Of a stretch of DNA of 64,000 nucleotides, positions 1-39,944 are shown piece by piece. A program made the position numbers and the translations under genes. Under the pieces are notes generated by a model. The model saw nothing but the letters and a program-made list of their open reading frames with translations, made no database searches and was not told the origin of the DNA. Position 1 is the stretch's first letter, and every line of letters starts with the position of its first letter. This DNA is from an uncultured Bifidobacteriaceae bacterium (GTDB lineage: Bacteria; Acidobacteriota; Vicinamibacteria; Vicinamibacterales; JAENWD01), in contig CAYUPN010000013.1 in assembly GCA_964446605.1 (NCBI GenBank), positions 16-64,015 on the forward strand, given 5' to 3'.

Positions 1-69
1 GCGCTGGTGGATTCGAACCACCGACCCCCGCCGTGTGAAGGCGATGCTCTACCACTGAGCCAAGCGCGC
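1..69 (-). tRNA. tRNA-Val (anticodon CAC), 3' end cut by window edge
   Basis: The reverse complement folds as a cloverleaf. Acceptor GCGCGCT; D arm GCTC-AGTGGTA-GAGC; anticodon arm TCGCC-TTCACAC-GGCGG; variable GGGTC; T arm GGTGG-TTCGAAT-CCACC; then AGCGC. The last acceptor bases and CCA are off-window. Confidence 0.9.
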
Positions 70-4554: not shown

Positions 4555-4628
4555 TGGAGCGGGCTACGGGAATCGAACCCGTCTGGCTGGCTTGGGAAGC
4601 CAGGGCATTACCACTATGCTAAGCCCGC
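4555..4628 (-). tRNA. tRNA-Gly (anticodon CCC) with encoded CCA
   Basis: Reverse complement reads GCGGGCT-TA-GCAT-AGTGGTA-ATGC-C-CTGGC-TTCCCAA-GCCAG-CCAG-ACGGG-TTCGATT-CCCGT-AGCCCGC-T-CCA. Confidence 0.92.
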
Positions 4629-7303: not shown

Positions 7304-7912
7304 GTGGTGCTGAACCTCCCCAACACGCTGACGCTGGCGCGGATTTTCCTCGTCCCGCTGCTCGTGGTGGTGCTGCTCACGAAGTTCGAGGGGCAGCTCA
7401 TCCTCGGCGTGCCGCGATCCGTCGTGGCGGCGGCCATCTTCGGCCTGGCCTCGCTCACCGACTGGCTGGACGGCTACCTCGCGAGGCGCCGCGGGCAGGT
7501 CACCGCGCTCGGGCGGATGATGGACCCGCTCGCCGACAAGCTGCTCACGTCGGGCGCGTTCATCTCCCTGGTGCAGCTCGACGTCGCGCCGGCGTGGATG
7601 GTCGCTGTCATCATCGGCCGCGAACTCGCCATCACGGGGCTCCGCAGCCTGGCGGCCTCGCGCGGGGTCGCCTTCGGCGCCTCGCGGCTCGGCAAGATCA
7701 AGATGGCGTCCCAGGTGACGACGATCCTGCTGCTGATTCTCGGACAGGACGGGCAGCAGCCGTTCCTGCTGCTGGGCCAGATCGGGCTCTGGGTCGTGGT
7801 GGGAACCGCGCTGGTCTCGGCGATGGACTACTACTGGCGGTTCCAGCAGACGCCGGCCGCGCCCAACGTCGCGGACTTCGAAGAGGCGCGCCGGGCGCGC
7901 CGGACGGGGTAG
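7304..7912 (+). CDS. pgsA: CDP-diacylglycerol--glycerol-3-phosphate 3-phosphatidyltransferase
   Basis: 202 aa membrane protein. CDP-alcohol phosphatidyltransferase motif DWLDGYLARRRGQVTALGRMMDPLADK. Confidence 0.88.
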   Translation: MVLNLPNTLTLARIFLVPLLVVVLLTKFEGQLILGVPRSVVAAAIFGLASLTDWLDGYLARRRGQVTALGRMMDPLADKLLTSGAFISLVQLDVAPAWMVAVIIGRELAITGLRSLAASRGVAFGASRLGKIKMASQVTTILLLILGQDGQQPFLLLGQIGLWVVVGTALVSAMDYYWRFQQTPAAPNVADFEEARRARRTG

Positions 7913-24689: not shown

Positions 24690-26522
24690 TCATCGGAGCG
24701 GCAGCGAGAGGAAACGCGCGCCCGAGACCGCGTAGTCGGTGGGGATGGCCCACTCGCCCAGGGTCGCACTGCGCAGACTGCCGATCGAGCCGCCGTGGCG
24801 GTCGCCGTCGAGCACCGCCAGCACGGAGGGGGGCAGCGCCGACAGCGCCTCGCCGCTGACGACCGCGCCGGGTTCGGAGCTGACCAGCCGCACGTAGAGG
24901 TGGTTGTTCTTCCGCGCCTTGTTGAAGGCCTTGACGATCTGCGCGGCGTCCTGCGCCTGCTGCGTCTGGCGCGTCTCGCGCTGCTCGATCTGCGCCAGCC
25001 GCGCGCCGTCGGCGACGATGAGCGTCAGCGTGCCGCTGGCGTTGACGGGGATGTCGACCGGTACCGTGTGCAGGACGTCCTCACCGCGCGACGTCCGCAT
25101 CAGGAGCTTCACGGGCACGCTGCGCCCGGGCCGCACTCTGGGCGCGTCCAGCCACACGCGCTCGAGGACCGCCGTGCGGGGCTCCTCCGAGGAGACGATC
25201 GTCAGATCGAGCTCGTTGATCTCGACCGACTCGAACTCGTTCTTGAGCAGGAACGTGATCGGCCCGGCAATGTAGCTGGCGGCTCCGACCGACGGAGACT
25301 CACCCGTGAAGATGTCCTCGAACGCGATCTCGCCGTGCTTGGCGACGAGCGCGCGGCCGGTCACGACGAAGCTGGCCGTTCCGAACTCACGCTCGTACGA
25401 CTTCAGCGTGTTCACGACGGTCAGGTACGTCAGCAGCGGCGTGAACAGCTGGTCGCGCACCACCGAGAAGCGGAACTCGCGGCGCGGGCCGCGATCCGTG
25501 TCGAGCACGAGCCGGATCGGCAGCATCGAAGGGCCGGTGCCGAGCGTGCCCGCAATCGCCGTCGCCCGATCCTGCTCGAACGTGCCGATGACCCGGCCGA
25601 GGCTGCCGAGCTTCGAGGAGTTCATCAGGCTGGGCAGCAGGGTGTGAATCCAGGCCCGCGTCATCGGGAACTTCGTCGGGCCGAGGTTGTAGAACGGGTG
25701 GCCGAACGCGTAGACGCGATCCCCTTCCACGGCGGTGACCGTTCCGGTGCCGCCGAGCGACAGGTCGCCGTCGATGAGGCCCACGCCGATCGCGTCGCCG
25801 GGCCGGAGGGGACGATCCAGTTCGGGTGCGTCGGGTGCCGTCCCGCCTCCCGCCGCCATCGGCGTGAAGCCGCTCGACGAGAACGCCGTGGCAATCATCG
25901 TCGCGACGTCGCCGCGGAAGCCGTTCATCACCAGCGGCGTCGCAATCGGCCGCAGCATCGTCGCCAGATCGGGAGTGACGCCGGAGCCCAGGCTGGCGGG
26001 CCGCACGTCGGCCGGCGACTGCGCGAACGGCGTCGTGCGCGTGAACACGTCCTGGAGCGTGGCTGCCAGCGAGGCGGTGCTGACCGGGAGCGTCAGGCTG
26101 GCCTGCGTGCCGGGTGCCCGGCGGGCGGTCGTGCGCGTGGCCTCGATCATCTCGTCGATGGGCGTGATCCCCGCGATCGGCTCACGGGAGAACGCGCCGA
26201 GCGAGTAGGACACGGCGCCGATCAGTCGGCCATCCACGTAGACCGGGCTGCCGCTCATGCCGGCGATGACGCCGGTCTTCTCGAGCGGACCGCCTTCGAG
26301 CCGCGCCAGAATCAGATTGCGGCTCGGGCCCATGACGTTCTCGAGCACGCCGAGAATGTGGACCTTGAACTCTTCGAGCTCGGACCCGGTGAAGACCGTC
26401 CGCCCGACACCGACCATGCCCGGCACGATCTCGGACACCGGCATCAGGGGGGCCGCCGCGCGCAAGGGCAGCAGGGCGAGCAGGGCGAGGGAGAGTGTAA
26501 GAAATGCGCGACCAAACCCCAT
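24690..26522 (-). CDS. secreted peptidase S55 (SpoIVB-like serine peptidase) with a long C-terminal region of unknown function
   Basis: ATG 26522 gives a signal peptide (FLTLSLALLALLPLRA). The N-terminal domain contains GVIAGMSGSPVYVDGRLIGAVS, the SpoIVB-type catalytic Ser motif. About 450 aa downstream have no recognisable motif. The raw ORF extends to 26687. Confidence 0.75.
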   Translation of the reverse strand: MGFGRAFLTLSLALLALLPLRAAAPLMPVSEIVPGMVGVGRTVFTGSELEEFKVHILGVLENVMGPSRNLILARLEGGPLEKTGVIAGMSGSPVYVDGRLIGAVSYSLGAFSREPIAGITPIDEMIEATRTTARRAPGTQASLTLPVSTASLAATLQDVFTRTTPFAQSPADVRPASLGSGVTPDLATMLRPIATPLVMNGFRGDVATMIATAFSSSGFTPMAAGGGTAPDAPELDRPLRPGDAIGVGLIDGDLSLGGTGTVTAVEGDRVYAFGHPFYNLGPTKFPMTRAWIHTLLPSLMNSSKLGSLGRVIGTFEQDRATAIAGTLGTGPSMLPIRLVLDTDRGPRREFRFSVVRDQLFTPLLTYLTVVNTLKSYEREFGTASFVVTGRALVAKHGEIAFEDIFTGESPSVGAASYIAGPITFLLKNEFESVEINELDLTIVSSEEPRTAVLERVWLDAPRVRPGRSVPVKLLMRTSRGEDVLHTVPVDIPVNASGTLTLIVADGARLAQIEQRETRQTQQAQDAAQIVKAFNKARKNNHLYVRLVSSEPGAVVSGEALSALPPSVLAVLDGDRHGGSIGSLRSATLGEWAIPTDYAVSGARFLSLPLR

Positions 26523-26619
26523 CACGTGCACTGTTTTCCCCTTGGACGATGCGGCGCGCGGGTGGGACGGTGTTGCCATGGTCCAGTATACAGCGCGGAC
26601 AAGGGGCTCGCCCCGTTGG

Positions 26620-26648
26620 TTGACACGCGCGGGCGGCTCTGGTAGCGT
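26620..26648 (+). promoter_or_regulatory. candidate sigma70 promoter for the aromatic leader/supraoperon
   Basis: Consensus TTGACA (26620-26625), exactly 17 nt, then TAGCGT (26643-26648). Confidence 0.5.
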
Positions 26649-26667
26649 TTTTTTCACTCGACGCCGT

Positions 26668-26805
26668 ATGCCTGTGTCCCGGTGCAACGCCGTGCTGTTC
26701 TATACCCCGTCCGGCAGCCGTGTGCAAATCGGCGCGGCCGCGGCGGGGATCGGTGCGTACCGGAGCTGGTGGTGGTTTGACACGCCCAGGAGGGAAGAGG
26801 CGTAA
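26668..26805 (+). CDS. candidate leader peptide rich in aromatic codons (trpL-like)
   Basis: 45 codons: MPVSRCNAVLFYTPSGSRVQIGAAAAGIGAYRSWWWFDTPRREEA. TGG TGG TGG lies at 26767-26775, flanked by Tyr and Phe codons. An alternative in-frame GTG is at 26722. No obvious SD. Its position relative to the hairpins fits attenuation. Confidence 0.55.
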   Translation: MPVSRCNAVLFYTPSGSRVQIGAAAAGIGAYRSWWWFDTPRREEA

Positions 26806-26840
26806 GCGCACGCACCGGCCAGCGCGTCGACGAACCGGAG

Positions 26841-26880
26841 AGCCTCTTCACCGACCAGGTGCAAGAGGCTTTTTCATTTT
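26841..26880 (+). terminator. intrinsic terminator (attenuator) abutting the aroDE start codon
   Basis: The stem pairs 26841-26852 with 26858-26870 (8 bp, a 1-nt bulge at C26862, then 4 bp; 5-nt loop), followed by TTTTTCATTTT. GAAGAGGC (26794-26801) can alternatively pair with GCCTCTTC (26842-26849). Confidence 0.7.
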
Positions 26881-28365
26881 ATGGCCCATCTGTGTGTCAC
26901 GGTCACGGCGCCGACTCTCGCCGACCTGCGCGCGCGGCGCGATGCCGCCGCGCGCGAGGCGGACCTGGTCGAGTTGCGTCTGGACACCGTGGCCGATCCG
27001 GATCCCGAGGGCGCGCTCGCCGGCCGGACCGGTCCGGTGATCGTGACCTGCCGCGCGGCATGGGAGGGAGGGCAGTTCCGCGGCTCCGAAGAGGAGCGCC
27101 TCCGGCTGCTCGAACGCGCCTGGCGCGCGTCCGCGGACTTTGTCGACGTCGAATTCCAGGCCTGGCATCAGGCCCCCTGGATCGGTGAGACCCGCGGGGA
27201 GCGGCTGGTCGTCTCCCACCACGACTTCACCGGCGTGCCCGGCGACCTCCGGGCCCGGCACGCCGCGATGTCGGCAACCGGTGCGGCCGTCGTGAAGCTG
27301 GCCGTCACCGCGCGAGCGCTCCGCGACTGCGTGCCGCTGCTCGGGCTGCGGCCGCCGGCCGGCCGCCGGCACGTGCTGATCGCGATGGGCGCCGCAGGAC
27401 TGGTGACGCGGCTCCTGCCGGATCGGCTCGCGTCGGCGTGGAGCTATGCCGGCGATGGCGTCGCCCCGGGGCAGGTCCCCGCCCGGCGCATGCGCGAGGA
27501 GTTCCGGTTCGGCGACGTCGGCGCCGGCGCCGGGCTCTACGGGCTGGCGGCGAACCCGGTGGGGCACTCGGTGTCGCCGGCCATGCACAACGCCGCGTTC
27601 CGCGCCGCCGGACTCGACGCGGTGTACGTGCCGCTGCAGGCTGCGGACGCCGCGGATCTGTTCGCCTTCGCCGACGCCTTCGACCTCGCCGGCGCGAGCG
27701 TCACGGTGCCGTTCAAGGTCGACGTGCTGCCGTATTGCACGCTCGACGAGGTCGCGCGGGAGGTCGGGGCGGTGAACACGCTCCGCCGCGCCGGCGGGGC
27801 GTGGGAGGGCTTCAACACCGACGTGGCCGGTCTGCTGGCGCCGCTGGCGGCGCGCGTCGAGCTCGCCGGCCTGCGCGCGACCGTGCTCGGCGCAGGCGGC
27901 GCGGCGCGCGCGGCGGCAATCGCGCTGCGGCGGGCCGGCGCGTCGGTGACGATTGCCGCGCGGCGGCCGGATCGCGCGCGTGCCATCGCGGGCGAGGCGG
28001 GGGTGGCGGCCGTGCCGCTGCCGCCGGCCCCCGGCAGCTGGAATCTGCTCGTCAACGCGACGTCGGCCGGGATGTACCCGGCCGTCGACGAGACGCCCCT
28101 GCCCGATGCGCACCTGGACGGGCAGCTCGTCTACGACCTCGTCTACAACCCGCCGGAGACGCGGTTGCTGCGCGAGGCGCGGGCAGCCGGCTGCGCCACG
28201 CTCGGCGGACTCGACATGCTGGTCGCGCAGGCCGTCGAGCAGTTCCGGATCTGGACCGGCCGCGCGCCGGACCCGTCCGTCATGCGGGCGGCCGCCGAGC
28301 GGCGGCTGGCCGCCTTTTCCGCCACGCCGCCGGTCGCGGCCCCCTCGTCTGGCCCCCCCTCATGA
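26881..28365 (+). CDS. aroDE: bifunctional 3-dehydroquinate dehydratase (type I) / shikimate dehydrogenase
   Basis: 494 aa. The N-terminal half is AroD-like (CVTVTAP...ADLVELRLD...FVDVE). The C-terminal half is AroE-like (GLAANPVGHSVSPAMHNAAF, ASVTVPFK, GAVNTL, NTDVAG, GAGGAARA). Confidence 0.88.
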   Translation: MAHLCVTVTAPTLADLRARRDAAAREADLVELRLDTVADPDPEGALAGRTGPVIVTCRAAWEGGQFRGSEEERLRLLERAWRASADFVDVEFQAWHQAPWIGETRGERLVVSHHDFTGVPGDLRARHAAMSATGAAVVKLAVTARALRDCVPLLGLRPPAGRRHVLIAMGAAGLVTRLLPDRLASAWSYAGDGVAPGQVPARRMREEFRFGDVGAGAGLYGLAANPVGHSVSPAMHNAAFRAAGLDAVYVPLQAADAADLFAFADAFDLAGASVTVPFKVDVLPYCTLDEVAREVGAVNTLRRAGGAWEGFNTDVAGLLAPLAARVELAGLRATVLGAGGAARAAAIALRRAGASVTIAARRPDRARAIAGEAGVAAVPLPPAPGSWNLLVNATSAGMYPAVDETPLPDAHLDGQLVYDLVYNPPETRLLREARAAGCATLGGLDMLVAQAVEQFRIWTGRAPDPSVMRAAAERRLAAFSATPPVAAPSSGPPS

Positions 28366-29839
28366 AGCTGACCACCTTCGAAGAGTTCGTCGATCTCGCG
28401 CGGCGCGGCACCTTCGTGCCGGTGTGCAAGGAGATCGTGGCCGATCTGCTGACGCCGGTCTCGGCGTTCCTCAAGATCGCGGAGCACTCGGATTACGCGT
28501 TCCTCTTCGAGAGCGTCGAAGGCGGGGAGCACGTCGGGCGCTATTCGTTCCTCGGCAAGGACCCGTTCCTCGTCGTGCGCGCGCGCGAGGACGGCACCAT
28601 CATCGAGCGCGCCGGCGTCGTCGAGGCGTCGTCGGAGCCCTTCGTGCAGGTCGTGCGCGGGCTCATGGCCGGCTACCAGGCGCCGTACGTGCCGGAGCTT
28701 CCACGCTTCACCGGCGGCGCCGTCGGCTATCTCGCCTACGACGCGGCGCAGTGGTTCGAGCCGGTGCCGACCGCGCGCGGACCCGTCGAGGGCCCCGGCG
28801 CGGACTCCGATCTGGCCACGTTCATGTTCTTCGACACGGTGCTGGCGTTCGATCACGCGCGGCACCGCCTGCTGCTCATCGCCAACGCGCGCGTGACGGC
28901 CGAAGACGATCTCGAGGCGCTGTACGGCTTCGCCTGCGCGCGCATCGGCTTTCTCGAGGCCGAGCTCGAGCGCAGTCTGTCGGCAACACGGGCGCCGCAG
29001 GGTGGTCCCGTCACGCTGCGCTCGAATCTCACGCAGGACCAGTTCGAAGCGAACGTCCGCACCGCGAAGGAGCACATCGCGGCAGGCGACATCTACCAGG
29101 CCGTGCTGTCGCAACGCTTCGAAGCCGACGTGACCGCCGACCCGTTCACGGTCTACCGCGCCCTCCGCCACGTGAACCCGTCGCCGTACATGTATTTCAT
29201 GCGCCTCGGACGGCTGGCCATCGTCGGGTCGTCACCCGAGATGCTCGTGCGCGTCGAAGGCGGCCGCGCCGAGACGCATCCGATTGCCGGCACCCGGCCG
29301 CGCGGTCGATCGGCGGAGGAGGATCAGCGGCTGGCGGAGGAGTTGAAGCGCAACGAGAAGGAACGCGCCGAGCACGTGATGCTCGTGGATCTCGGCCGCA
29401 ACGATCTCGGGCGCGTCTGCCGGTTCGGGACGGTCCGGGTGCCGAAGTTCATGGCGCTCGAGCGGTACTCGCACGTGATGCATCTCGTCTCGATCGTCGA
29501 GGGACAGCTCGCCGACGACTGCGACCACCTCGATGCGCTCGCCGCCTGCTTCCCGGCGGGTACGGTGTCCGGCGCGCCGAAGGTGCGGGCGATGGAGATC
29601 ATCGCGGAGCTGGAACCGACGCGCCGCGGCATCTATGCCGGCGCCGTCGGCTACCTCGACTTCGCCGGCACGCTCGATTTCTGCATCACCATCCGCACGG
29701 TCGTGATGCTTGACGGCAAGGCGTACGTCCAGGCCGGCGCGGGCATCGTGGCCGACTCGAACCCGACCGCGGAGTACGAAGAGACGCGCGACAAGGCGAA
29801 GGCCGTCGTGCGTGCGCTGGAGCTGGCGCAGGCGGGGCT

Positions 29840-29843
<4 letters not shown>
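28362..29843 (+). CDS. trpE: anthranilate synthase component I
   Basis: ATG overlaps the upstream stop as ATGA. Motifs LLTPVSAF, LFESVEGGE, and the C-terminal GTVSGAPKVRAMEII and GIYAGAVGY. Confidence 0.93.
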
Positions 29844-30409
<566 letters not shown>

Positions 30410-30414
30410 CTGAC

Positions 30415-31442
30415 ATGCTGACCGAGCTGCTGCTCAAGCTCACCCGGCGGGAAGACCTGACCACCGACGAGGCGGCCGCCGCCATGGAGCTCGTGATGAC
30501 CGGTCAGGCGACCCCGGCGCAGCTGGCGGGGCTGCTGGTCGGCCTCGCGATGAAGGGGGAGCGGCCCGAGGAAATCGTCGGCCTCGCCCGGACGATGCGC
30601 GCGCATGCCGTCCCGCTGTCGACGACATACGACGACGTCGTCGACACGTGCGGGACCGGCGGGGATCGGGCCGGCACGGTGAACGTCTCGACCGGCGCGG
30701 CGATCGTGATGGCGGCCGCGGGCGTCCGCGTCGCCAAGCACGGCAACCGGTCGGTCTCGAGCCGCTGTGGCAGCGCCGACGTCTTCGAGGCGCTTGGCGT
30801 GACGATTGCCGTGCCGCCGGCCGTGGTCGAGCGCAGCCTCGCGGAAGCCGGCATCGCGTTCCTGTTCGCGCCGGCCTTCCATCCGGCGATGAAGCACGCG
30901 GCCGCGACGCGCCGGGAGCTGGGACTCCGCACGGCGTTCAATCTCCTCGGCCCGCTGACGAACCCGGCCGGCCCCCGCCGGCAGATCGTCGGCGTCCCGC
31001 GGCCCGAGCTGACCGAACTGGTCGCTCGTGCGCTGCTGCTGCTCGGATCGGAGCGCGCCTGGGTGGTGCATGGGGCGGATGGCCTGGACGAGATCTCGAC
31101 GACGGGATACACGAAGGTCTCGGAGGCCTGGCAGGGCACCGTCCGGACTTTCCACGTGCACCCCGGGGACTTCGGCATCCGCAAGGCGCCCCTCGACGCG
31201 CTGGTCGGCGGCGACGCGGCGCACAACGCCGGCATCCTGCGCGATGTCCTGCACGGCGCCGACGGGCCCGTTCGCGACATCGTCCTGCTGAACGCCGGGG
31301 CCGGGCTGTTCGTCGCCGGCGCGGCCCCGTCCGTCCGCGCGGGACTGGAGCTCGCCAGGGCCGCCATCGACGACGGACGGGCGAGCCGGACGCTCGCACG
31401 GCTCGTCGAGTCGACGGCAACGGCGGAAGCGGAGGCAGGAGC

Positions 31443-31446
<4 letters not shown>
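30415..31446 (+). CDS. trpD: anthranilate phosphoribosyltransferase
   Basis: 343 aa from ATG 30415. Motifs DTCGTGGD, KHGNRSVSS and LGPLTNPA. Confidence 0.93.
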
Positions 31447-32245
<799 letters not shown>

Positions 32246-32249
<4 letters not shown>

Positions 32250-32863
32250 TCGTGAAGATCTGCGGCATCACCCGGCCTGCCGACGCGCGGCTGGCGGTGT
32301 CGCTCGGCGCGACGCACGTCGGTGTGATCTGCTGGCCGGGAAGCCCGCGTTTCGTGGAGCCGGCCGCGGCGGCAGCCATCGTCGAGGCGGTCGGCGGCCG
32401 CGCGCTGACGGTCGGCGTGTTCGTCGACGACGCGCCCGAGCGCATGAACGCAGTGGCGGCGGAGACCGGGTTCGACCTGCTGCAACTGCATGGACAGGAG
32501 GCGCCGGAGGTCGGAGCGCTGCTCTCGCGGCCGTACATCAAGGCGCTCGCCGTCGGGCCGGACCTCGATGCCGGCCTGGCGCGCTGGCCCGGCGTGCCGG
32601 TGCTGCTCGATGCGCACGATCCGGTACGGCGCGGTGGCACCGGCGCGGTCGTCGACTGGGACCGCGCGGCGGCCGTCGCGCGCGGCCGGCAGGTGATCCT
32701 CGCCGGCGGGCTGCGGCCGGACAATGTCGGCGACGCGCTCTCGCGCGTGCGGCCGGCTGGCGTGGATGTCTCGTCCGGCGTCGAGTCGGCGCCGGGAATC
32801 AAGGATGAGGAGCGGCTGCGCGCGCTGTTCGACGCGATCAGCCGCGTGGAGGAGCTATCGTGA
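32246..32863 (+). CDS. trpF: phosphoribosylanthranilate isomerase
   Basis: 205 aa. N-terminal VKICGIT, LQLHG, and C-terminal [18 protein letters not shown]. Confidence 0.9.
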
Positions 32864-34080
32864 CCGTTGACAGCGCGCGGCGGCGGCTGGCGTTCGGGGA
32901 ACGCGACCCCGACGCACGCGGCTACTTCGGAGAGTTCGGCGGCCGGTTCGTCCCGGAAACGCTCGTGGCCCCGATCGACGAGCTGGCCCAGGCGTACGAA
33001 CGCGTGCGGCGGGATCCGTCCTTCCTCGACGAGCTCGAATCGCTGCTCGAGCACTACGTCGGACGTCCCACGCCGCTGTACGAGGCGCGGCGGCTCGCCG
33101 AGGACGCGGGAGGCGCGCAACTCTTCCTCAAGCGCGAGGACCTCACGCACACCGGCGCCCACAAGATCAACAACGCGCTCGGCCAGGCGCTGCTCGCCCA
33201 GCGCATGGGCAAGCGGCGCATCGTCGCGGAGACCGGGGCGGGCCAGCACGGCGTCGCGACCGCCACCGCGTGCGCGCTGCTCGGGCTGCAGTGCGAGGTC
33301 TACATGGGCGCGGAGGACATGGCGCGGCAGGCGCCCAACGTGCTGCGGATGCGGCTGCTGGGCGCCACGGTGCGTCAGGTCGATGCCGGCAGCCGGACGC
33401 TGAAGGACGCAATCAACGAAGCGATGCGCGACTGGGTCACGAACGTGGCGGACACGTTCTACCTGCTCGGCAGCGTGCTGGGTCCGCATCCGTATCCGCT
33501 CATGGTGCGCGAATTCCAGAGCGTCATCGGCCGCGAGGCGCGGGCGCAGATCCTCGAACGCGCCGGGCGCCTGCCCGAGGCGATCGTCGCCTGCGTCGGC
33601 GGCGGCAGCAATTCAATCGGCATCTTCGACGCGTTCGTGCCCGATGCCGGCGTCCGGCTGATTGGCGTCGAGGCGGGTGGCGAGGGGATTCAGCCGGGGC
33701 GCCACGCGGCGCGGTTCGCGGGGGGCGCGGTCGGGATCCTGCACGGCACCCGCACCTGGCTGCTGCAGGACGAGGCGGGCAACATCGAGCCGACGCATTC
33801 CATTTCCGCCGGGCTCGACTATCCGGCCGTGGGGCCGGAACATGCGTGGCTCCAGGCCGCCGGGCGCACCACGTACGCCCACGTGAGCGACGCCGAGGCG
33901 CTCGACGCGTTCCAGCGGCTCGCGCGGCTCGAGGGCATCCTTCCCGCGCTGGAATCGGCGCACGCGGTGGCGCACGCGCGCATCGTGGCGCGCGAAATCG
34001 GACCCGACGGGATTGTGCTCGTGAACCTGTCGGGTCGTGGAGACAAGGATCTGCAGACCGTGCAGGACAGGCTGTCATGA
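32860..34080 (+). CDS. trpB: tryptophan synthase beta chain
   Basis: 406 aa. PLP-lysine region [16 protein letters not shown], then [10 protein letters not shown] and GGGSNSIG. Confidence 0.95.
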
Positions 34081-34937
34081 CCGACGCGCACACTTCGCGT
34101 GCCGCCCGTTCGGGCGCCGCCCGGGCCGGGCGGCTCGAACGCACTTTCGCGCGGCTGCGCGCGGAGGGCCGGACCGGACTCGTCACCTACTTCACGGCCG
34201 GCGATCCGTCGCTCGCGCGGACCCGCGATCTGCTGTTCGCGCTCGAGCGCGCCGGCGCCGATGTCATCGAGCTGGGCGTGCCGTTCTCCGATCCGCTGGC
34301 GGACGGTCCCGTGATCCAGCGCGCGTCCGAGCGCGGGCTGCGCACCGGGACGACGCTGGCGGGGGTACTGGACCTGGTGGCCGACGTGCGCGCCACGCTG
34401 TCGGTGCCCATCGTCCTGTTCACCTACGCGAACCCGATCGCGCGAATCGGCCTCGAGGCGTTCGCCGATCGCGCGTCGGCCGCAGGCGTGGATGGCGTGC
34501 TGCTGCTCGACGTGCCGATCGAGGAGGCGGACGGCACCCGCACCGCCTTCCTGGCGCGCGGGCTCGACTCGATCTTCCTCGTCAGCCCGACGACGTCGGC
34601 CGAGCGGCTGGCGCGGGCGGCCTCTCTCGGCAGCGGGTTCCTGTACGGCATCTCGCGGCTGGGCGTGACCGGCGTGCGCGACCGCATCTCACAGGAAGCC
34701 GAGGCGCTGGCGGGACGCGTGCGGCAGGCCACCGATCTGCCGCTGGCGGTCGGGTTCGGCCTCTCGAAGGCCGAGCACATCGCTGCCGTCGGCCGGTTCG
34801 CCGAGGCCGCGGTGGTCGGCAGCGGCCTGGTGCAGGTGATCGCGGACGCCGGCGACACGCCGGAACTGGTGCCGCGCGTGGAGGCCTACGTGCGGTCGCT
34901 GGTGGCGGGTCCGGCGCACACGGGGGCGCAGCCGTGA
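34077..34937 (+). CDS. trpA: tryptophan synthase alpha chain
   Basis: ATGA overlap with trpB. Motifs [18 protein letters not shown] and GFGLS. Confidence 0.93.
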
Positions 34938-34939
34938 CG

Positions 34940-35254
34940 ATGGACGAGCTGCGCCAGCGGATCGACGAGCTCGACGAGCGGATCGTGGAGCTGCTGAACG
35001 AGCGCGCGCGCTGCGCGCTGCGCATCGGCGAGATCAAGCAGGAGCTCGGACTGGAGATCTATCAGCCCGAACGTGAGTCGCAGGTGCTGGGGCACGTGCG
35101 CGCGCACGGCGCCGCCATCGGCGGGCCGCTCGGCGCGGAAGCGCTGACGCGGCTGTTCGAGCGCATCATCGACGAAGCGCGCCGGCTGGAGCGCGAGTCG
35201 GCGAGCGCGCACGGCCACGGCGAGAGCGCCGGAGCCGACGGCACGGGCCGGTAG
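34940..35254 (+). CDS. chorismate mutase (AroQ class, monofunctional)
   Basis: 104 aa. LRQRIDELDERIVELLNERARCALRIGEIK is the canonical AroQ helix 1, and RLFERIIDEAR is helix 3. Confidence 0.85.
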   Translation: MDELRQRIDELDERIVELLNERARCALRIGEIKQELGLEIYQPERESQVLGHVRAHGAAIGGPLGAEALTRLFERIIDEARRLERESASAHGHGESAGADGTGR

Positions 35255-35280
35255 GGCAGCGGGGAAGTGGAGGACGGGTC

Positions 35281-36327
35281 ATGGTGGTGGTCATGCAGGA
35301 GCGGGCCAGCGAGGAGCAGATCGAGAAGGTCGTCGCGCACCTCGTCGCGCTCAAGATGGACGTGCATCGGTCGACGGGCGTGTCCCGGACCGTGCTGGGC
35401 GCGGTGGGGGACGACCGGCACATCGATCCGCGGCTGATCGAGATGCTCGACGGCGTCAGCGAGGTGCTGCGGGTCTCCGAGCCGTACAAGCTCGCGAGCC
35501 GCGCCTTCAAGCCGGATGGCACCGTGGTGCAGGTCGGGGACGTGCGCATCGGCGGCGACGAGGTGATCGTCATGGCCGGTCCGTGCTCCGCCGAATCGGA
35601 GGCACAGGTGCAGGCCGCGGCGGCCGCCGTCAAGCGCGCCGGCGCGAAGATCCTGCGCGGGGGCGCGTTCAAGCCGCGCAGCTCACCCTACAGTTTCCAG
35701 GGACTGGGCGAAGAGGGGCTCCGCCTGCTGCGCGACGCCGCCGACGCGCACGATCTGAAGCTGGTCAGCGAAGTGATGGACGTCAGCCAGATCGAGCTCG
35801 TCGACCGCTACAGTGACATCTTCCAGGTGGGCGCGCGCAACATGCAGAACTTCACGCTGCTGCGGGAGCTCGGCCGCGCGCGCAAGCCGGTGCTCCTCAA
35901 GCGCGGGATCGCCGCGACGATCGAGGAGTGGCTGCTCTCGGCGGAGTACGTGCTCGCCGGCGGCAACAGCGGTGTGATCCTCTGCGAGCGCGGCATCCGC
36001 ACCTTCGAGAGCTACACGCGCAACACGCTCGACATCTCCGCCGTCCCGGTGGTGAAGAAGCTGAGCCATCTGCCGATCATCGCGGACCCGAGCCACGGAA
36101 CGGGACGGCGCGACAAGGTGGCGCCGATGGCGCGCGCGGCCGTCGCCGCCGGCGCCGACGGCCTGATCATCGAGGTGCACTGCGATCCGGATCACGCGCT
36201 CAGCGACGGCGCGCAGTCGCTCTTCCCCGCGCAGTTCGACCGGCTGATGGCGGAGCTGCGCATCATCGCCCCGGCGATCGGCCGGACCATCTGTCTCGAG
36301 CCGGTCGCCAGACGCGGATGGCGGTGA
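35281..36327 (+). CDS. 3-deoxy-7-phosphoheptulonate (DAHP) synthase, type I-beta with N-terminal ferredoxin-like regulatory domain
   Basis: 348 aa. SD GGAGG lies 7 nt upstream. The N-terminal 70 aa (QIEKVVAHLVALKMDVHRSTG...) resemble the FL/ACT-like domain of Thermotoga-type enzymes. The core has MAGPCSAES, GGAFKPRSSPYSFQG and DPSH. Confidence 0.9.
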   Translation: MVVVMQERASEEQIEKVVAHLVALKMDVHRSTGVSRTVLGAVGDDRHIDPRLIEMLDGVSEVLRVSEPYKLASRAFKPDGTVVQVGDVRIGGDEVIVMAGPCSAESEAQVQAAAAAVKRAGAKILRGGAFKPRSSPYSFQGLGEEGLRLLRDAADAHDLKLVSEVMDVSQIELVDRYSDIFQVGARNMQNFTLLRELGRARKPVLLKRGIAATIEEWLLSAEYVLAGGNSGVILCERGIRTFESYTRNTLDISAVPVVKKLSHLPIIADPSHGTGRRDKVAPMARAAVAAGADGLIIEVHCDPDHALSDGAQSLFPAQFDRLMAELRIIAPAIGRTICLEPVARRGWR

Positions 36328-37178
36328 GCGACAGCGCCGAGGGCGGGTTTCGCCGCATCGGCATCGTCGGCGTCGGGCTGATCGGCGGATCGATCGCCTT
36401 CGCGACGCGGCGGACCTTCCCCGGCGTGACCGTCGTCGGCGTCGACCGCGAAGACGTCGTCGACGCGGCGCGCCAGCTCGGCGCGCTCCAGGCCGGCGCG
36501 ACGGACCTGCGCATCCTGGAGGGATGCGATCTGGTGGTGCTGGCCGCGCCGGTCCGGCAGAACGTCGAGGTGCTGGCGCACCTGCCGGATGCCATCCGGA
36601 GCGCCGCCATCGTCACGGACGCCGGCAGCACGAAGCGCGTGGTCGTCACGGCGGCGCGGGCCCTGCCGCCGCACCTCACCTTCATCGGCGGCCACCCGCT
36701 GGCGGGGTCCGCAAAGGGCGGCCTCGAAGCCTCACGCGCGGATCTGTTCGAGCGGCGTCCCTGGCTGCTCACGCCGACGGCCGACGTGCCGCCCGAGGCG
36801 GTGCAGCGGCTCTCGGCCTTCCTGACCTCGCTCGGTGCGACGCCGCTCGAGTTCGATCCCGATCGGCACGATCGGGTGCTCGCCTTCACCAGCCACCTGC
36901 CGCAGCTGGCCGCCTCCGCACTGATGCACGTCGTCGGCGAGGCGGTGGGAGAGGCCGGGCTCAGGCTCGCCGGGGGCGGGCTGGCGGACACGACGCGCGT
37001 GGCTGCGAGTCCGGCGGCCATCTGGACCGACATCTGCGCCACGAACGCCGACGAGATCCTGCCGGCGCTCGACACCCTCATCACGACGCTCCAGCGTCTC
37101 CGCGCCGACCTCGACGCCGGCGCCCCGATCGATCCCCTCTTCACCTCAGCGCAGCGCTGGCGCCGGCAGATCAAGTAA
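36318..37178 (+). CDS. tyrA: prephenate (or arogenate) dehydrogenase
   Basis: 286 aa. Rossmann IGIVGVGLIGGS, and GGHPLAGS with the catalytic His. It overlaps the DAHP synthase stop by 10 nt. Confidence 0.85.
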   Translation: MAVSDSAEGGFRRIGIVGVGLIGGSIAFATRRTFPGVTVVGVDREDVVDAARQLGALQAGATDLRILEGCDLVVLAAPVRQNVEVLAHLPDAIRSAAIVTDAGSTKRVVVTAARALPPHLTFIGGHPLAGSAKGGLEASRADLFERRPWLLTPTADVPPEAVQRLSAFLTSLGATPLEFDPDRHDRVLAFTSHLPQLAASALMHVVGEAVGEAGLRLAGGGLADTTRVAASPAAIWTDICATNADEILPALDTLITTLQRLRADLDAGAPIDPLFTSAQRWRRQIK

Positions 37179-37286
37179 CAGGTCTCCGATCAGGTCGGAT
37201 CGGGTCGGATCAGGTCGGATCAGGTCGGATCAGGTCGGATCGGGTCGGATCAGGTCGGATCGGGTCGGATCAGGTCGGATCAGGTC
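37179..37286. repeat. 10-bp tandem repeat C(A/G)GGTCGGAT, 9 full units plus degenerate flanking units
   Basis: Units start exactly at 37191, 37201 ... 37271. Position 2 is A,G,A,A,A,G,A,G,A across the nine units. The flanks are a 12-nt degenerate copy at 37179-37190 and a partial CAGGTC at 37281-37286. Isolated degenerate copies lie at 37324-37333 and 37363-37372. Confidence 0.97.
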
Positions 37287-37407
37287 CCGCCTTCGTCCGC
37301 CTGCGATTGGTTGCGGGCTCGGCGGATCAGGTCCGCGCGCGCTCGAGGGTGGCGGCGCGCGCGATCGGGTCCGGCGCGTCGCCAATCTCATCTGTTGTTA
37401 TGGAATG

Positions 37408-37414
37408 ATAAATT
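37408..37414 (+). promoter_or_regulatory. candidate -10 element (ATAAAT/TAAATT) for the CoA-transferase operon, leaderless geometry
   Basis: Located in the AT-rich patch tctgttgttatggaatgataaattagcggc. TAAATT (37409-37414) is followed by 6 nt and then ATG 37421. Confidence 0.4.
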
Positions 37415-37420
37415 AGCGGC

Positions 37421-38122
37421 ATGAACAAGGTCCTGCAGTCGGCTGACGAAGCTGTCGCGATGATCCCCGACGGGGCGACGCTGATGGTTGGCGGGTTCGG
37501 CGTGTGCGGGAATCCGGAGAACCTCCTGGACGCGCTGGAACGCCGGGGCACGCGCGGGCTGACGGTCATCAGCAACAACGCCGGGATCGACGGGTTCGGG
37601 CTGGGGCGGCTCCTGGCCGGCCGTCAGATCAGGAAGATGATCGCGACCTACGTCGGCGAGAACCGCGAGTTCGAACGGCAGTTCCTCGCCGGGGAGCTCG
37701 AAGTCGAGCTGGTGCCGCAGGGCACGTTCGCCGAGCGCATCCGTGCGGGGGGCGCGGGCATCGGCGGGTTTTACACACCGACCGGGGCCGGGACGATCGT
37801 CGCGGAAGGGAAGGAGACGCGCGTCATCGACGGGAAGCCGTATGTCTTCGAGCTGCCGCTCAAGGCCGACTTCGCGCTCGTGCGCGCGTGGAAGGGGGAC
37901 ACGCGCGGGAACCTCGTCTTCCGGAAGACGGCGCGCAACTTCCACCCGATGATGGCGACCGCCGCGCGCGTGACGCTCGCCGAGGTGGAGCACCTCGTCG
38001 AGGCAGGGGAGATCGAGCCCGATGCGGTGCACACGCCCGGCATCTTCGTGTCGCACATCCTGCAGGGGGCGCGCTATTCGCGCCTCGTCGAGCGGCGTAC
38101 GGTGAGGAGCAGCCATGGATAA
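37421..38122 (+). CDS. 3-oxoacid CoA-transferase subunit A (ScoA/AtoD family)
   Basis: 233 aa. [14 protein letters not shown] and SENG-less A-subunit pattern, with ...[18 protein letters not shown]. Confidence 0.9.
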
Positions 38123-38762
38123 GCGCGAGCGCATCGTCCGCCGCGTCGCGCGCGAACTGCGCGACGGCGACTACGTGAACCTCGGCATCGGCATGCCGAC
38201 GCTCGTGGCCAACCACGTGCCGCCCGGCGTCGACATCACGCTGCACTCCGAGAACGGCATGCTCGGGGTGGGGCCGTACCCGCTCGAGCACGAGGTGGAT
38301 CCCGATCTCATCAACGCCGGCAAGGAGACGGTCTCCGAGACCCCCGGCTGCTGCTACTTCAGCTCCGCCGACTCCTTCGCGATGGTGCGCGGCGGGCACA
38401 TCGACCTGACCGTGCTCGGGGCCCTCCAGGTCGACGGCGAGGGCAATCTCGCGAACTGGATGATTCCGGGCAAGATGGTGAAGGGCATGGGCGGCGCGAT
38501 GGATCTCGTCGCCGGCGCGAAGCGCGTCATCGTCGCGATGGAGCACACCACGCGCGACGGCGGACACAAGATCCTCGAGCGCTGTACGCTCCCACTGACT
38601 GGCGCGAAGGTCGTGAGCCTGATCGTCACCGAGATGGCCGTCATCGAGGTCACGCCTCGCGGGCTGGTGCTGCGCGAACGCGCGGAGGACACGACCGTCG
38701 ACGCGATCCGCGCGGCCACGGGGGCGACGCTGCTCGACGAGGGCGCCGTCGGAACGTTCTAG
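38115..38762 (+). CDS. 3-oxoacid CoA-transferase subunit B (ScoB/AtoA family)
   Basis: 215 aa. The catalytic-Glu region is LHSENGMLG, followed by GAMDLV. Confidence 0.9.
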
Positions 38763-38774
38763 GGAGGCGGACGC

Positions 38775-39944
38775 GTGTCCAGTGTCATTCTCTCCGGGTG
38801 TCGCACGCCCATCGGCTCGTTCGGCGGCGCGCTGAAGGATCTCGGCGCGCCGCAGCTCGGCGCCATCGCGATCCGCGAGGCGCTGGCGCGCGCCGGCGCG
38901 GAGCCGGCGCAGATCGACGACGTGCTCATGGGGTGCGTGCTGCAGGCGGGCGCCGGCATGAACGTCGCGCGACAGGCGGCGCTCGGCGCGGGGCTTCCCG
39001 CCGACGTGCCGGCCGAGACGGTGAACCGCGTGTGCGGCTCCGGCCTTGCGGCCGTCATGCATGCCGCGGACGCGATTGCGGCGGGGACCGCGCGTCTCGT
39101 CGTCGCCGGCGGCACCGAGTCGATGTCGAACGCGCCGTATCTGCTGAAGGGCGCGCGCTGGGGCTACCGGATGGGACACGGCGAGCTCGTCGACACCATG
39201 ATCGCCGAGGGCCTGACGTGCGCGCTCGAGGGCTGCCACATGGGCAGCACCGCCGAGGCGATTGCCGAGCGGACGGGCATCCCGCGCGCGGAGCAGGACG
39301 CGTTCGCGGCCGAGAGCCAGCGGCGCGCCGTCGCCGCACGCGATGCCGGCTGGTTCGCCGACGAGATCGTCCCGGTGGCCGTTCCGCAGCGGAAGGGGGA
39401 CCCGGCGATCGTCTCCGTCGACGAGTACCCGCGTCCGGGCACGACCGTCGAGAAGCTCGCGGCGCTGGCGCCCGCATTCCAGCGTGGCGGCACCGTCACG
39501 GCCGGGAACGCTTCCGGCATCAACGACGGCGCGGCAGCACTCGTCGTCGCGGCCGAATCGGCCGCGGTGCATCCGCCGCTGGCGCGCATCCTCGCGTATG
39601 CGATTGCCGGCGTCGAACCGAAGTACATGGGGCTCGGCCCCGTTCCCGCCGTGCGGAAGGCGCTCGACCGCGCCGGCATCGCCATCGGCGACGTCGACCT
39701 CTTCGAGCTGAACGAGGCGTTCGCCGTGCAGGCCCTGGCCGTGATCCGCGACCTCGGGGTCGACCCGGCGCGCGTCAACGTCGGCGGCGGCGCGGTGGCG
39801 CTCGGACATCCCATCGGCGCGAGCGGCGCGCGCGTGCTGGTCACCCTGCTGTACCATCTGCGCCGTACGGACGGGCGCCTCGGTGTCGCCTCGCTCTGTG
39901 TCGGCGGCGGCATGGGCGTGGCGATGGTCATCGAGCGGTTGTGA
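38775..39944 (+). CDS. acetyl-CoA C-acetyltransferase (thiolase II)
   Basis: 389 aa. SD GGAGG lies 7 nt upstream of the GTG. Active-site Cys in VNRVCGSGL; C-terminal [19 protein letters not shown] and CVGGGMG. Confidence 0.93.

Follow-up and report, generated by a model that had tools for sequence, protein, structure and literature searches.

Leader-peptide attenuation is a textbook mechanism of gene regulation, documented mainly in Proteobacteria and Actinobacteria. Its reference case, trpL of Escherichia coli and Salmonella (Rfam RF00513), combines a promoter-proximal open reading frame (ORF) with tandem Trp codons, a terminator placed just before the first gene, and an antiterminator that shares one strand with this terminator, being freed by a stalled ribosome and masked when the ribosome reaches the end of the ORF. 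In the enterobacterial ilvGMEDA, ilvBN and thr leaders the ORF carries codons for several amino acids of the pathway, and shortage of any of them can relieve termination. The present analysis concerns the 358-nt gap upstream of aroDE, the first gene of an aro-trp-tyr supraoperon, in a 64,000-nt stretch of DNA (contig CAYUPN010000013.1, henceforth the window) that AroDE homologues place in the Vicinamibacteria, Acidobacteriota. As judged from sequence, this gap very probably holds a ribosome-mediated leader-peptide transcription attenuator governing the 11 genes of the operon.

The features listed above for trpL have their counterpart in the window, the role of the ribosome as a prediction, but the predicted leader peptide has 45 residues instead of 14, mixes codons for Trp, Tyr and sometimes Phe, and yields no match to RF00513 or to any Pfam or NCBIfam leader family. 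Moreover, the antiterminator 5' strand (R2) is here contained within the ORF, upstream of the stop codon, neither a conserved 1:2 hairpin nor a Shine-Dalgarno (SD) sequence is present, and the genes controlled form an aro-trp-tyr supraoperon instead of being limited to trpEDCBA. Multivalency is shared with the leaders of ilv and thr, but these sense Ile/Leu/Val or Thr/Ile, not aromatic residues. The trpL of Corynebacterium glutamicum and the trpE leader of Streptomyces venezuelae belong to the same class, with a Trp run upstream of trpE in high-GC bacteria; however, they come from another phylum and have no detectable sequence similarity to the window element, which includes Tyr in its putative sensor and has Tyr- and Phe-type paralogues, while a survey of Actinobacteria detected no regulation at the RNA level among genes for tyrosine or phenylalanine (PMC1262725). 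The aro supraoperon of Bacillus subtilis also embeds trp genes amid tyrA and common-pathway genes and is subject to a 5' choice between terminator and antiterminator (PMC4027176, PMC3064811), although its sensor is TRAP, binding 11 (G/U)AG repeats, and not a leader ORF that appears to be translated. Finally, the leaderless poly-Cys short ORFs of mycobacteria (10.1101/834739) provide a precedent for a nearly leaderless regulatory first cistron with tandem cognate codons, but for another amino acid and in another phylum, a canonical terminator and a covarying antiterminator being evident here. An aro-trp attenuator of Desulfovibrio was sought in the 2004 study of Rodionov (PMC545781), which does not describe one. 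According to a survey of 2010, leader-peptide systems were at that time known only in Proteobacteria and Actinobacteria, and almost no predicted attenuator of Acidobacteria had an assigned function (PMC2965389). In the literature searched, the coverage of which was incomplete, no description of this attenuation in Acidobacteria and none of a multivalent aromatic leader (Trp and Tyr, with or without Phe) was found, in line with a preliminary description of this DNA that knew of no equivalent in such a lineage.

Coordinates of the window element (Table 1) were obtained by direct reading of positions 26400-27100. This reading reproduced the elements of the preliminary description, including its promoter (TTGACA-17 nt-TAGCGT) and its 45-codon ORF with Y-R-S-W-W-W-F and an alternative in-frame GTG at 26722, save for one boundary: the U-rich tract does touch the aroDE ATG, but starts at 26870 and not at 26871. 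The -10 hexamer TAGCGT (26643-26648) is preceded by TGG and is for this reason read as an extended -10 (TGnTAnnnT), and the letters of the promoter are the same in the close relatives L081 and L083. A simple consensus scanner left this promoter unflagged, because its -10 agrees with TATAAT at just three of six positions, and likewise missed the terminator, which has a bulged stem; these misses are therefore not taken as evidence against either element. Within the ORF, TAC occupies 26758-26760, the three TGG codons 26767-26775 and TTT 26776-26778, a WWW run having been met by chance in 80 of 20000 random 358-nt regions of equal composition.

Table 1. Location of the elements of the candidate attenuator, of the genes flanking it in the window, and of its Tyr- and Phe-type relatives on metagenome contigs (prefix L).
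Feature	Location	Strand	Description
Promoter	26620-26648	+	-35 TTGACA 26620-26625; 17-nt spacer; extended -10 TGGTAGCGT 26640-26648
Leader ORF	26668-26805	+	ATG 26668, TAA 26803-26805; 45 codons; encodes MPVSRCNAVLFYTPSGSRVQIGAAAAGIGAYRSWWWFDTPRREEA
Regulatory codons	26758-26778	+	TAC (Y) CGG AGC TGG TGG TGG (WWW) TTT (F)
R2, antiterminator 5' strand	26794-26801	+	GAAGAGGC; last sense codons of the leader (E-E-A)
R3, shared strand	26840-26852	+	Terminator 5' arm and antiterminator 3' strand; core GCCTCTTC 26842-26849
R4, terminator 3' arm	26858-26871	+	GGTG-C-AAGAGGCT; holds SD-like GAGG 26865-26868
U-rich tract	26870-26880	+	TTTTTCATTTT; predicted termination point; abuts aroDE ATG 26881
Supraoperon	26881-37178	+	11 genes; Pfam matches
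S55-family peptidase gene	24690-26522	-	PF05580; divergent; bounds the 358-nt intergenic region
Tyr-type element	L199:8607-8718 (-); L171:2829-2938; also L188, L159		Terminator GCCTCTTCAGCC-AGCCC-GGTTGAAGAGGCTTTTT, identical
Phe-type candidate attenuator	L171:2480-2720 (-); L199:8905-9145; L188:1180-1416		Divergent from the Tyr-type element

The terminator hairpin pairs 26841-26852 with 26858-26870 through 8 bp, a bulged C (C26862) and 4 bp closed by a 5-nt loop (GACCA), exactly as had been proposed, with a predicted energy of -19 to -20.6 kcal/mol. Since the S55 peptidase gene is divergent, this plus-strand terminator can act only on transcripts begun in the gap. The claim that no other hairpin in the window precedes a long U-tract also held, as neither strand of the 64 kb has a second hairpin of dG <= -12 with T5 behind it. 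The complementarity noted earlier between the end of the leader ORF and the terminator 5' arm is exact, R2 being the perfect complement of the R3 core, so that the same strand is claimed by two helices. The minimum free energy (MFE) of the whole leader gives a z-score of -1.48, a value that is uninformative about a switch whose folds compete. As a side observation, intrinsic terminators are apparently rare in this genome, as a single strong hairpin with a T5 run occurs in the 64-kb window, and the end of the supraoperon (37178-37421) is devoid of one.

A scan of a genome collection returned 80 loci, one per species, and 79 were analysed: those of 78 Vicinamibacteria species with enough upstream sequence, together with the window. 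An intrinsic terminator (-16 to -27 kcal/mol, followed by a run of T4-T9) stands upstream of aroDE in all 79, as does a short aromatic-rich leader ORF (24-45-aa-type) with runs such as WWWYW, WRWYW, WWYY or YWYWYY and with a stop codon 27-58 nt upstream of R3. The W-run ORF and the terminator, whose conservation among orthologues had been suggested as a check, are thus kept throughout, with at least two Trp codons in 78 of 79 leaders. The promoter arrangement is maintained as well, TTGACN-16..18-TANNNT being found in 73 of the 79 loci versus 9 of 1580 shuffles, and TG at -15/-14, characteristic of an extended -10, in 64. A covariance model built from the family alignment (R1) recognized a single copy in the window (55.8 bits) and one per contig, at 93-94 bits, in metagenome sequences outside its seed. 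Two weak R1 matches, at 7353-7440 and 35273-35363, were rejected, as they lie within coding sequence and lack terminators. Finally, the exact terminator sequence was located in 120 metagenome contigs, 113 of them with downstream sequence, where the next gene is an aroDE homologue in 107 and aroDE-like by eye in two more.

Helix pairing and compensatory changes were then evaluated on alignment A2, using as control the same strands with one partner slid by 1-3 columns. In the terminator, 91.4% of R3:R4 cells are paired, compared with 35-57% when slid, and its basal pairs 152:191 and 153:190 covary (AU 49, CG 22). For the antiterminator the figure over the 79 sequences is 92.0% of R2:R3 cells, compared with 40-56% when slid, with 19 cells showing double changes and an observed score that none of 500 shuffles reached. 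Compensatory changes, proposed earlier as a test of both helices, were hence found in each of them and extend to the three strands at once: the R3 variant GCCTCTCC is accompanied by GGAGAGGC in both R2 and R4, and the variant GCCCTCTC by GAGGGGG in both, while lone A-to-G changes in R2 or R4 yield G-U pairs. The strong sequence conservation of the stems plausibly results from this triple constraint, added to the coding of R2 as E-E/G-A. RNAalifold recovers only the terminator on A2, and it was for this reason that R2:R3 pairing was tested explicitly. Altogether, the elements, their pairings and covariation, the reading-frame constraints and the distances are conserved in these computations.

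Several of these constraints are indirect signs that the leader is translated. In 77 of 79 loci the aromatic run and R2 share one codon phase, with spacers of 6, 9, 12, 15, 18, 21 or 27 nt, while the untranslated spacer from the stop codon to R3 adopts every length from 27 to 45 nt. Among close relatives (80-92% AroDE identity), in which start codon, stop codon and WWWF run are preserved, indels within the ORF measure 3, 6 or 21 nt, and those just after the stop 1-2 nt. Trp is exchanged for Tyr or Phe (TGG to TAY/TTY), which preserves the residue class and not the RNA sequence, and an exact-cluster look-up showed that the leader of one relative had already been called as a 44-aa protein. The first in-frame start lies 9-12 nt past the -10 in 45 of the 73 loci with a promoter, and 19 nt past it in the window, for predicted 5' untranslated regions (UTRs) of ~1-6 nt in most relatives and ~12 nt in the window. 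An SD-like tetramer precedes the leader in just 4 of these 73 loci, the window leader being devoid of one; translation of the leader would probably proceed from a leaderless or very short 5' UTR.

These observations also bear on a different explanation, in which the ORF is not translated and the choice between antiterminator and terminator depends on a ligand of its UGG-rich RNA, either a tRNA, as in T-boxes, or a protein resembling TRAP, HutP or PyrR. The UGG repeats and the conserved R2, R3 and R4 strands could in principle be binding sites, and the missing SD would fit as well, but neither the codon phase of R2 with spacers in multiples of three, nor the confinement of in-frame indels to the ORF, nor substitutions that keep the amino-acid class at the expense of the RNA sequence, nor a start codon at a fixed distance from the promoter would be expected from it. 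In addition, fewer than three consecutive (G/U)AG-N2-3 repeats occur in 26649-26880, so no TRAP-type array is found there, and the T-box motif GGTGGNACC is not found at the window leader. Scanning against Rfam, which had been advised in particular for the Trp leader families, returned no leader, T-box or riboswitch family in 26300-27200 at E <= 10 or in the whole window at gathering thresholds, and four leader peptides searched against Pfam and NCBIfam gave no match at E <= 10. Binding of an untranslated RNA is consequently considered very improbable.

The distances along the leader are compatible with control by a translating ribosome. In the family, the median distance to the start of R2 is 12 nt when counted from the opening base of the final aromatic codon, and 15 nt from the last Trp codon; in the window, R2 starts 18 nt past the last aromatic codon, and the stop codon follows 9 nt after the start of R2. 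A ribosome protects roughly 12-15 nt downstream of its A site, according to footprinting. Stall sites at 26773 and 26776 would then leave R2 (26794) free, while a ribosome at the TAA (26803) would cover it. Folding of transcripts cut before R4, with the ribosome footprint masked, yields R2:R3 in 70 of 79 loci when the ribosome is stalled and in none of the 79 when it is at the stop codon, R3 being mostly free in 62 of 79 in the latter situation; the masked folds of the window behave like those of the family. Conserved distances and masked folds therefore support the trpL-like geometry, with mutually exclusive structures, that had been put forward in the preliminary description.

According to this attenuator model, transcription would start a few nt past the extended -10, at about 26655, and the 45-codon leader would be translated from its very short 5' UTR without an SD. 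Under a shortage of charged tRNA-Trp or tRNA-Tyr, the ribosome would stall on the TAC/TGG-TGG-TGG/TTT codons, with Phe shortage possibly being counted too in the lineage of the window, and its front edge, some 12-15 nt past the A-site codon, would remain short of R2. R2 would then pair with the R3 core once R3 has been made, R4 could not close the terminator, and the polymerase would proceed into aroDE. With plentiful aromatic amino acids, the ribosome would reach the TAA and occlude R2, allowing R3:R4 to form and transcription to stop in the U-rich tract. Stalling, kinetic competition between helices, the response to amino-acid supply and the leaderless type of initiation are the parts of this model that we infer.

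A number of observations weigh against this model and have to be considered beside it. First, in the absence of an SD, translation of the leader would depend on initiation from leaderless or short-UTR transcripts, itself deduced for this group from sequence. Second, when full-length leaders are folded to equilibrium, the terminator prevails in 74-79 of the 79 loci, whatever is masked, so that read-through must be kinetic, as in classical attenuators. Third, a conserved 1:2 anti-antiterminator or pause hairpin was not found among the 79 loci (mean z of -0.27 versus shuffles), and R2:R3 forms without any ribosome in 59 of them, which together predict that an untranslated leader would be read through and, with the SD missing as well, leave transcription and translation without an apparent means of synchronization. 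Fourth, in most relatives R2 begins 21 nt before the stop codon, and a ribosome at the stop would leave all but the 3' end of R2 uncovered; with its 9 nt, the window is the clean case. Relatedness among the sequences also inflates the shuffle-based statistics. Pairing of the UGG codons with a CCACC-like spacer, seen in the MFE fold of the window, was tried as an anti-antiterminator and rejected as a family feature on the z-score given above. With no conserved 1:2 hairpin, the element is therefore better regarded as a three-segment design than as a copy of E. coli trpL.

Regarding what would be sensed, codons were counted in a stretch of 10 that closes with the last aromatic codon. The mean content of the 79 leaders is 2.76 W, 1.63 Y and 0.66 F, with at least three Trp in 55 of them, at least one Tyr in 75 and at least one Phe in 41; L055 and L035 are among those whose leaders lack Tyr. 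Trp and Tyr are thus the regulatory codons conserved family-wide, Phe being present in about half of the leaders. The earlier statement that a single leader carries codons for all three aromatic amino acids is hence correct for the sequence of the window lineage, but not for the family. In the clade of the window, the Phe codon forms part of a W-W-W/R-F motif and may act as a third input to the sensor.

This codon content agrees with the composition of the operon. Pfam matches give the gene order aroD-aroE fusion, trpE, trpG, trpD, trpC, trpF, trpB, trpA, CM_2 (type II chorismate mutase, CM), 3-deoxy-D-arabino-heptulosonate 7-phosphate (DAHP) synthase and tyrA (prephenate dehydrogenase), and the same 11-gene order is kept in distant relatives and long metagenome contigs (L085, L086, L128, L134, L176, L197 and L136). 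The preliminary description had the operon making all three aromatic amino acids; tyrA is indeed there, but pheA is absent from the operon, and no prephenate dehydratase (PDT) was found anywhere in the 64-kb window. An operon with tyrA and without pheA matches the conserved Trp and Tyr codons.

The four remaining metagenome contigs with the exact terminator sequence (L159, L171, L188 and L199) have the same terminator and R2 joined to a Tyr-rich leader. These leaders end in ..AYVYYWSYPSG* or ..SLYYWSYPSG*, with 4-5 Tyr codons, one Trp codon and a TGA stop inside R2, and precede a stand-alone operon for chorismate mutase-DAHP synthase-tyrA. Divergently from this Tyr-type element, a Phe-type candidate attenuator shows a leader VAVARCVFGAFAFTSSNGAGRQPV* (VFGAFAFT..) with 2-3 Phe codons, a separate terminator GGCCCGTTCCCGG-atgc-CCGGGGACGGGCCTTTTT and a segment resembling R2, CGGGAAGGC, upstream of a gene for a 670-aa CM-PDT-DAHP synthase fusion. 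As read from these sequences, leader codon content tracks operon content. Since the codons of the paralogues change with the product of the operon, the Tyr codons of the supraoperon leader are argued to be functional, which would make the element a multivalent sensor of Trp or Tyr.

The same data allow weighing the simpler view of a Trp-only attenuator, in which Tyr and Phe codons are bystanders due, for example, to peptide chemistry or to mutation of TGG to TAY/TTY. Trp is indeed the most conserved of the three residues, and 7 of the 11 genes of the operon are trp genes. On the contrary, Tyr occurs in nearly every leader at ~1.6 per 10 codons, far above background, the operon ends in CM-DAHP synthase-tyrA, and the paralogue preceding the stand-alone version of that block, with its 4-5 Tyr and single Trp, points to Tyr as the sensed residue within the same scaffold. 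Sensing of Trp alone is thus unlikely, and the codon content makes it likely that the element senses both Trp and Tyr.

The paralogues also inform on a third alternative, that the nascent W-W-W-(Y/F) peptide arrests the ribosome in response to the free amino acid, in the manner of TnaC, and not to a shortage of charged tRNA. Aromatic-rich nascent chains are arrest elements elsewhere (TnaC, SecM), and the residues surrounding the run form a fairly conserved motif; however, conservation does not extend to the N-terminal parts of the peptide, and the shift of codon identity with the operon product is what would be expected of sensors of tRNA charging. Such an arrest would in addition act in the opposite sense to that required of a biosynthetic operon, R2 being freed and synthesis turned on when Trp is in excess. 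Peptide-mediated arrest is accordingly regarded as exceedingly improbable, and attenuation through tRNA charging is retained.

The switch had also been suggested to gate translation of aroDE, on the assumption that the U-rich tract is the only sequence upstream of its ATG and that no SD exists. The latter is not quite right, as the SD-like GAGG within the terminator 3' arm is placed 12 nt upstream of the start codon. Nonetheless, the distance between GAGG and the start is 5-13 nt in 31 of the 79 loci and above 20 nt in 33. Since the spacing fits only those 31 loci, translational gating is possible in the window without being general in the family; the idea that R4 serves everywhere as the SD of aroDE was accordingly rejected and kept as an optional add-on, whereby the terminator 3' arm may double as the aroDE ribosome-binding site in ~40% of species.

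As for the surroundings of the element, the S55 peptidase is the divergent neighbour in relatives too. Within the 40 nt upstream of the leader promoter, about 16 related loci (e.g., L016, L027 and L050) share a conserved block, CATTATACGAGAGAAGTGCTTGCTGGTCAAGGAGAAATGGG, the minus strand of which reads TTGACC-17 nt-TATAAT and is probably, from its sequence, the promoter of the divergent S55 peptidase gene. At the equivalent site (26585-26597), the window and its close relatives have CCAGTATACAGCG in common. In the Vicinamibacterales genome L086, a pair formed by a PhD/YefM antitoxin and a PIN toxin (L086:9308-10001) lies between the S55 peptidase gene and aroDE; no attenuator is present there, model R1 having no match in 21.5 kb, and L086 represents a natural loss or replacement of the leader. 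At the opposite end of the operon, genes for CoA-transferase subunits A and B and for a thiolase directly follow tyrA (37421-39944), the CoA-transferase genes being at the same position in L085. Two tRNA genes, one at 1-69, cut by the window edge, and a tRNA-Gly(CCC) gene at 4555-4628 (-), are the sole Rfam gathering-level matches of the window.

Concerning its place among known systems, the predicted mechanism is classical and not a new principle, and this locus is a well-supported extension of it to a new phylum, deduced from conserved sequence features. Its unusual traits are the multivalent aromatic leader, the lack of an SD and of a 1:2 hairpin, and the informative paralogues. On balance, we lean towards a modular family of Vicinamibacteria attenuators without SD, whose codons are tuned to each operon (Trp or Tyr, with Phe in some lineages, for the supraoperon; Tyr-rich for CM-DAHP synthase-tyrA; Phe for the CM-PDT-DAHP synthase fusion), and which would be the first such attenuators in Acidobacteriota as well as the first multivalent aromatic ones.

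A new family of RNAs and leader peptides could be seeded with model R1 and its alignment. The element also provides a testable regulatory handle on a soil lineage that is abundant and, in this analysis, represented by metagenome-assembled genomes only. The family as a whole may further be regarded as a natural experiment, in which one scaffold has been re-tuned by its codons: Trp and Tyr for the supraoperon, Tyr for the tyr operon, and Phe for the phe gene.

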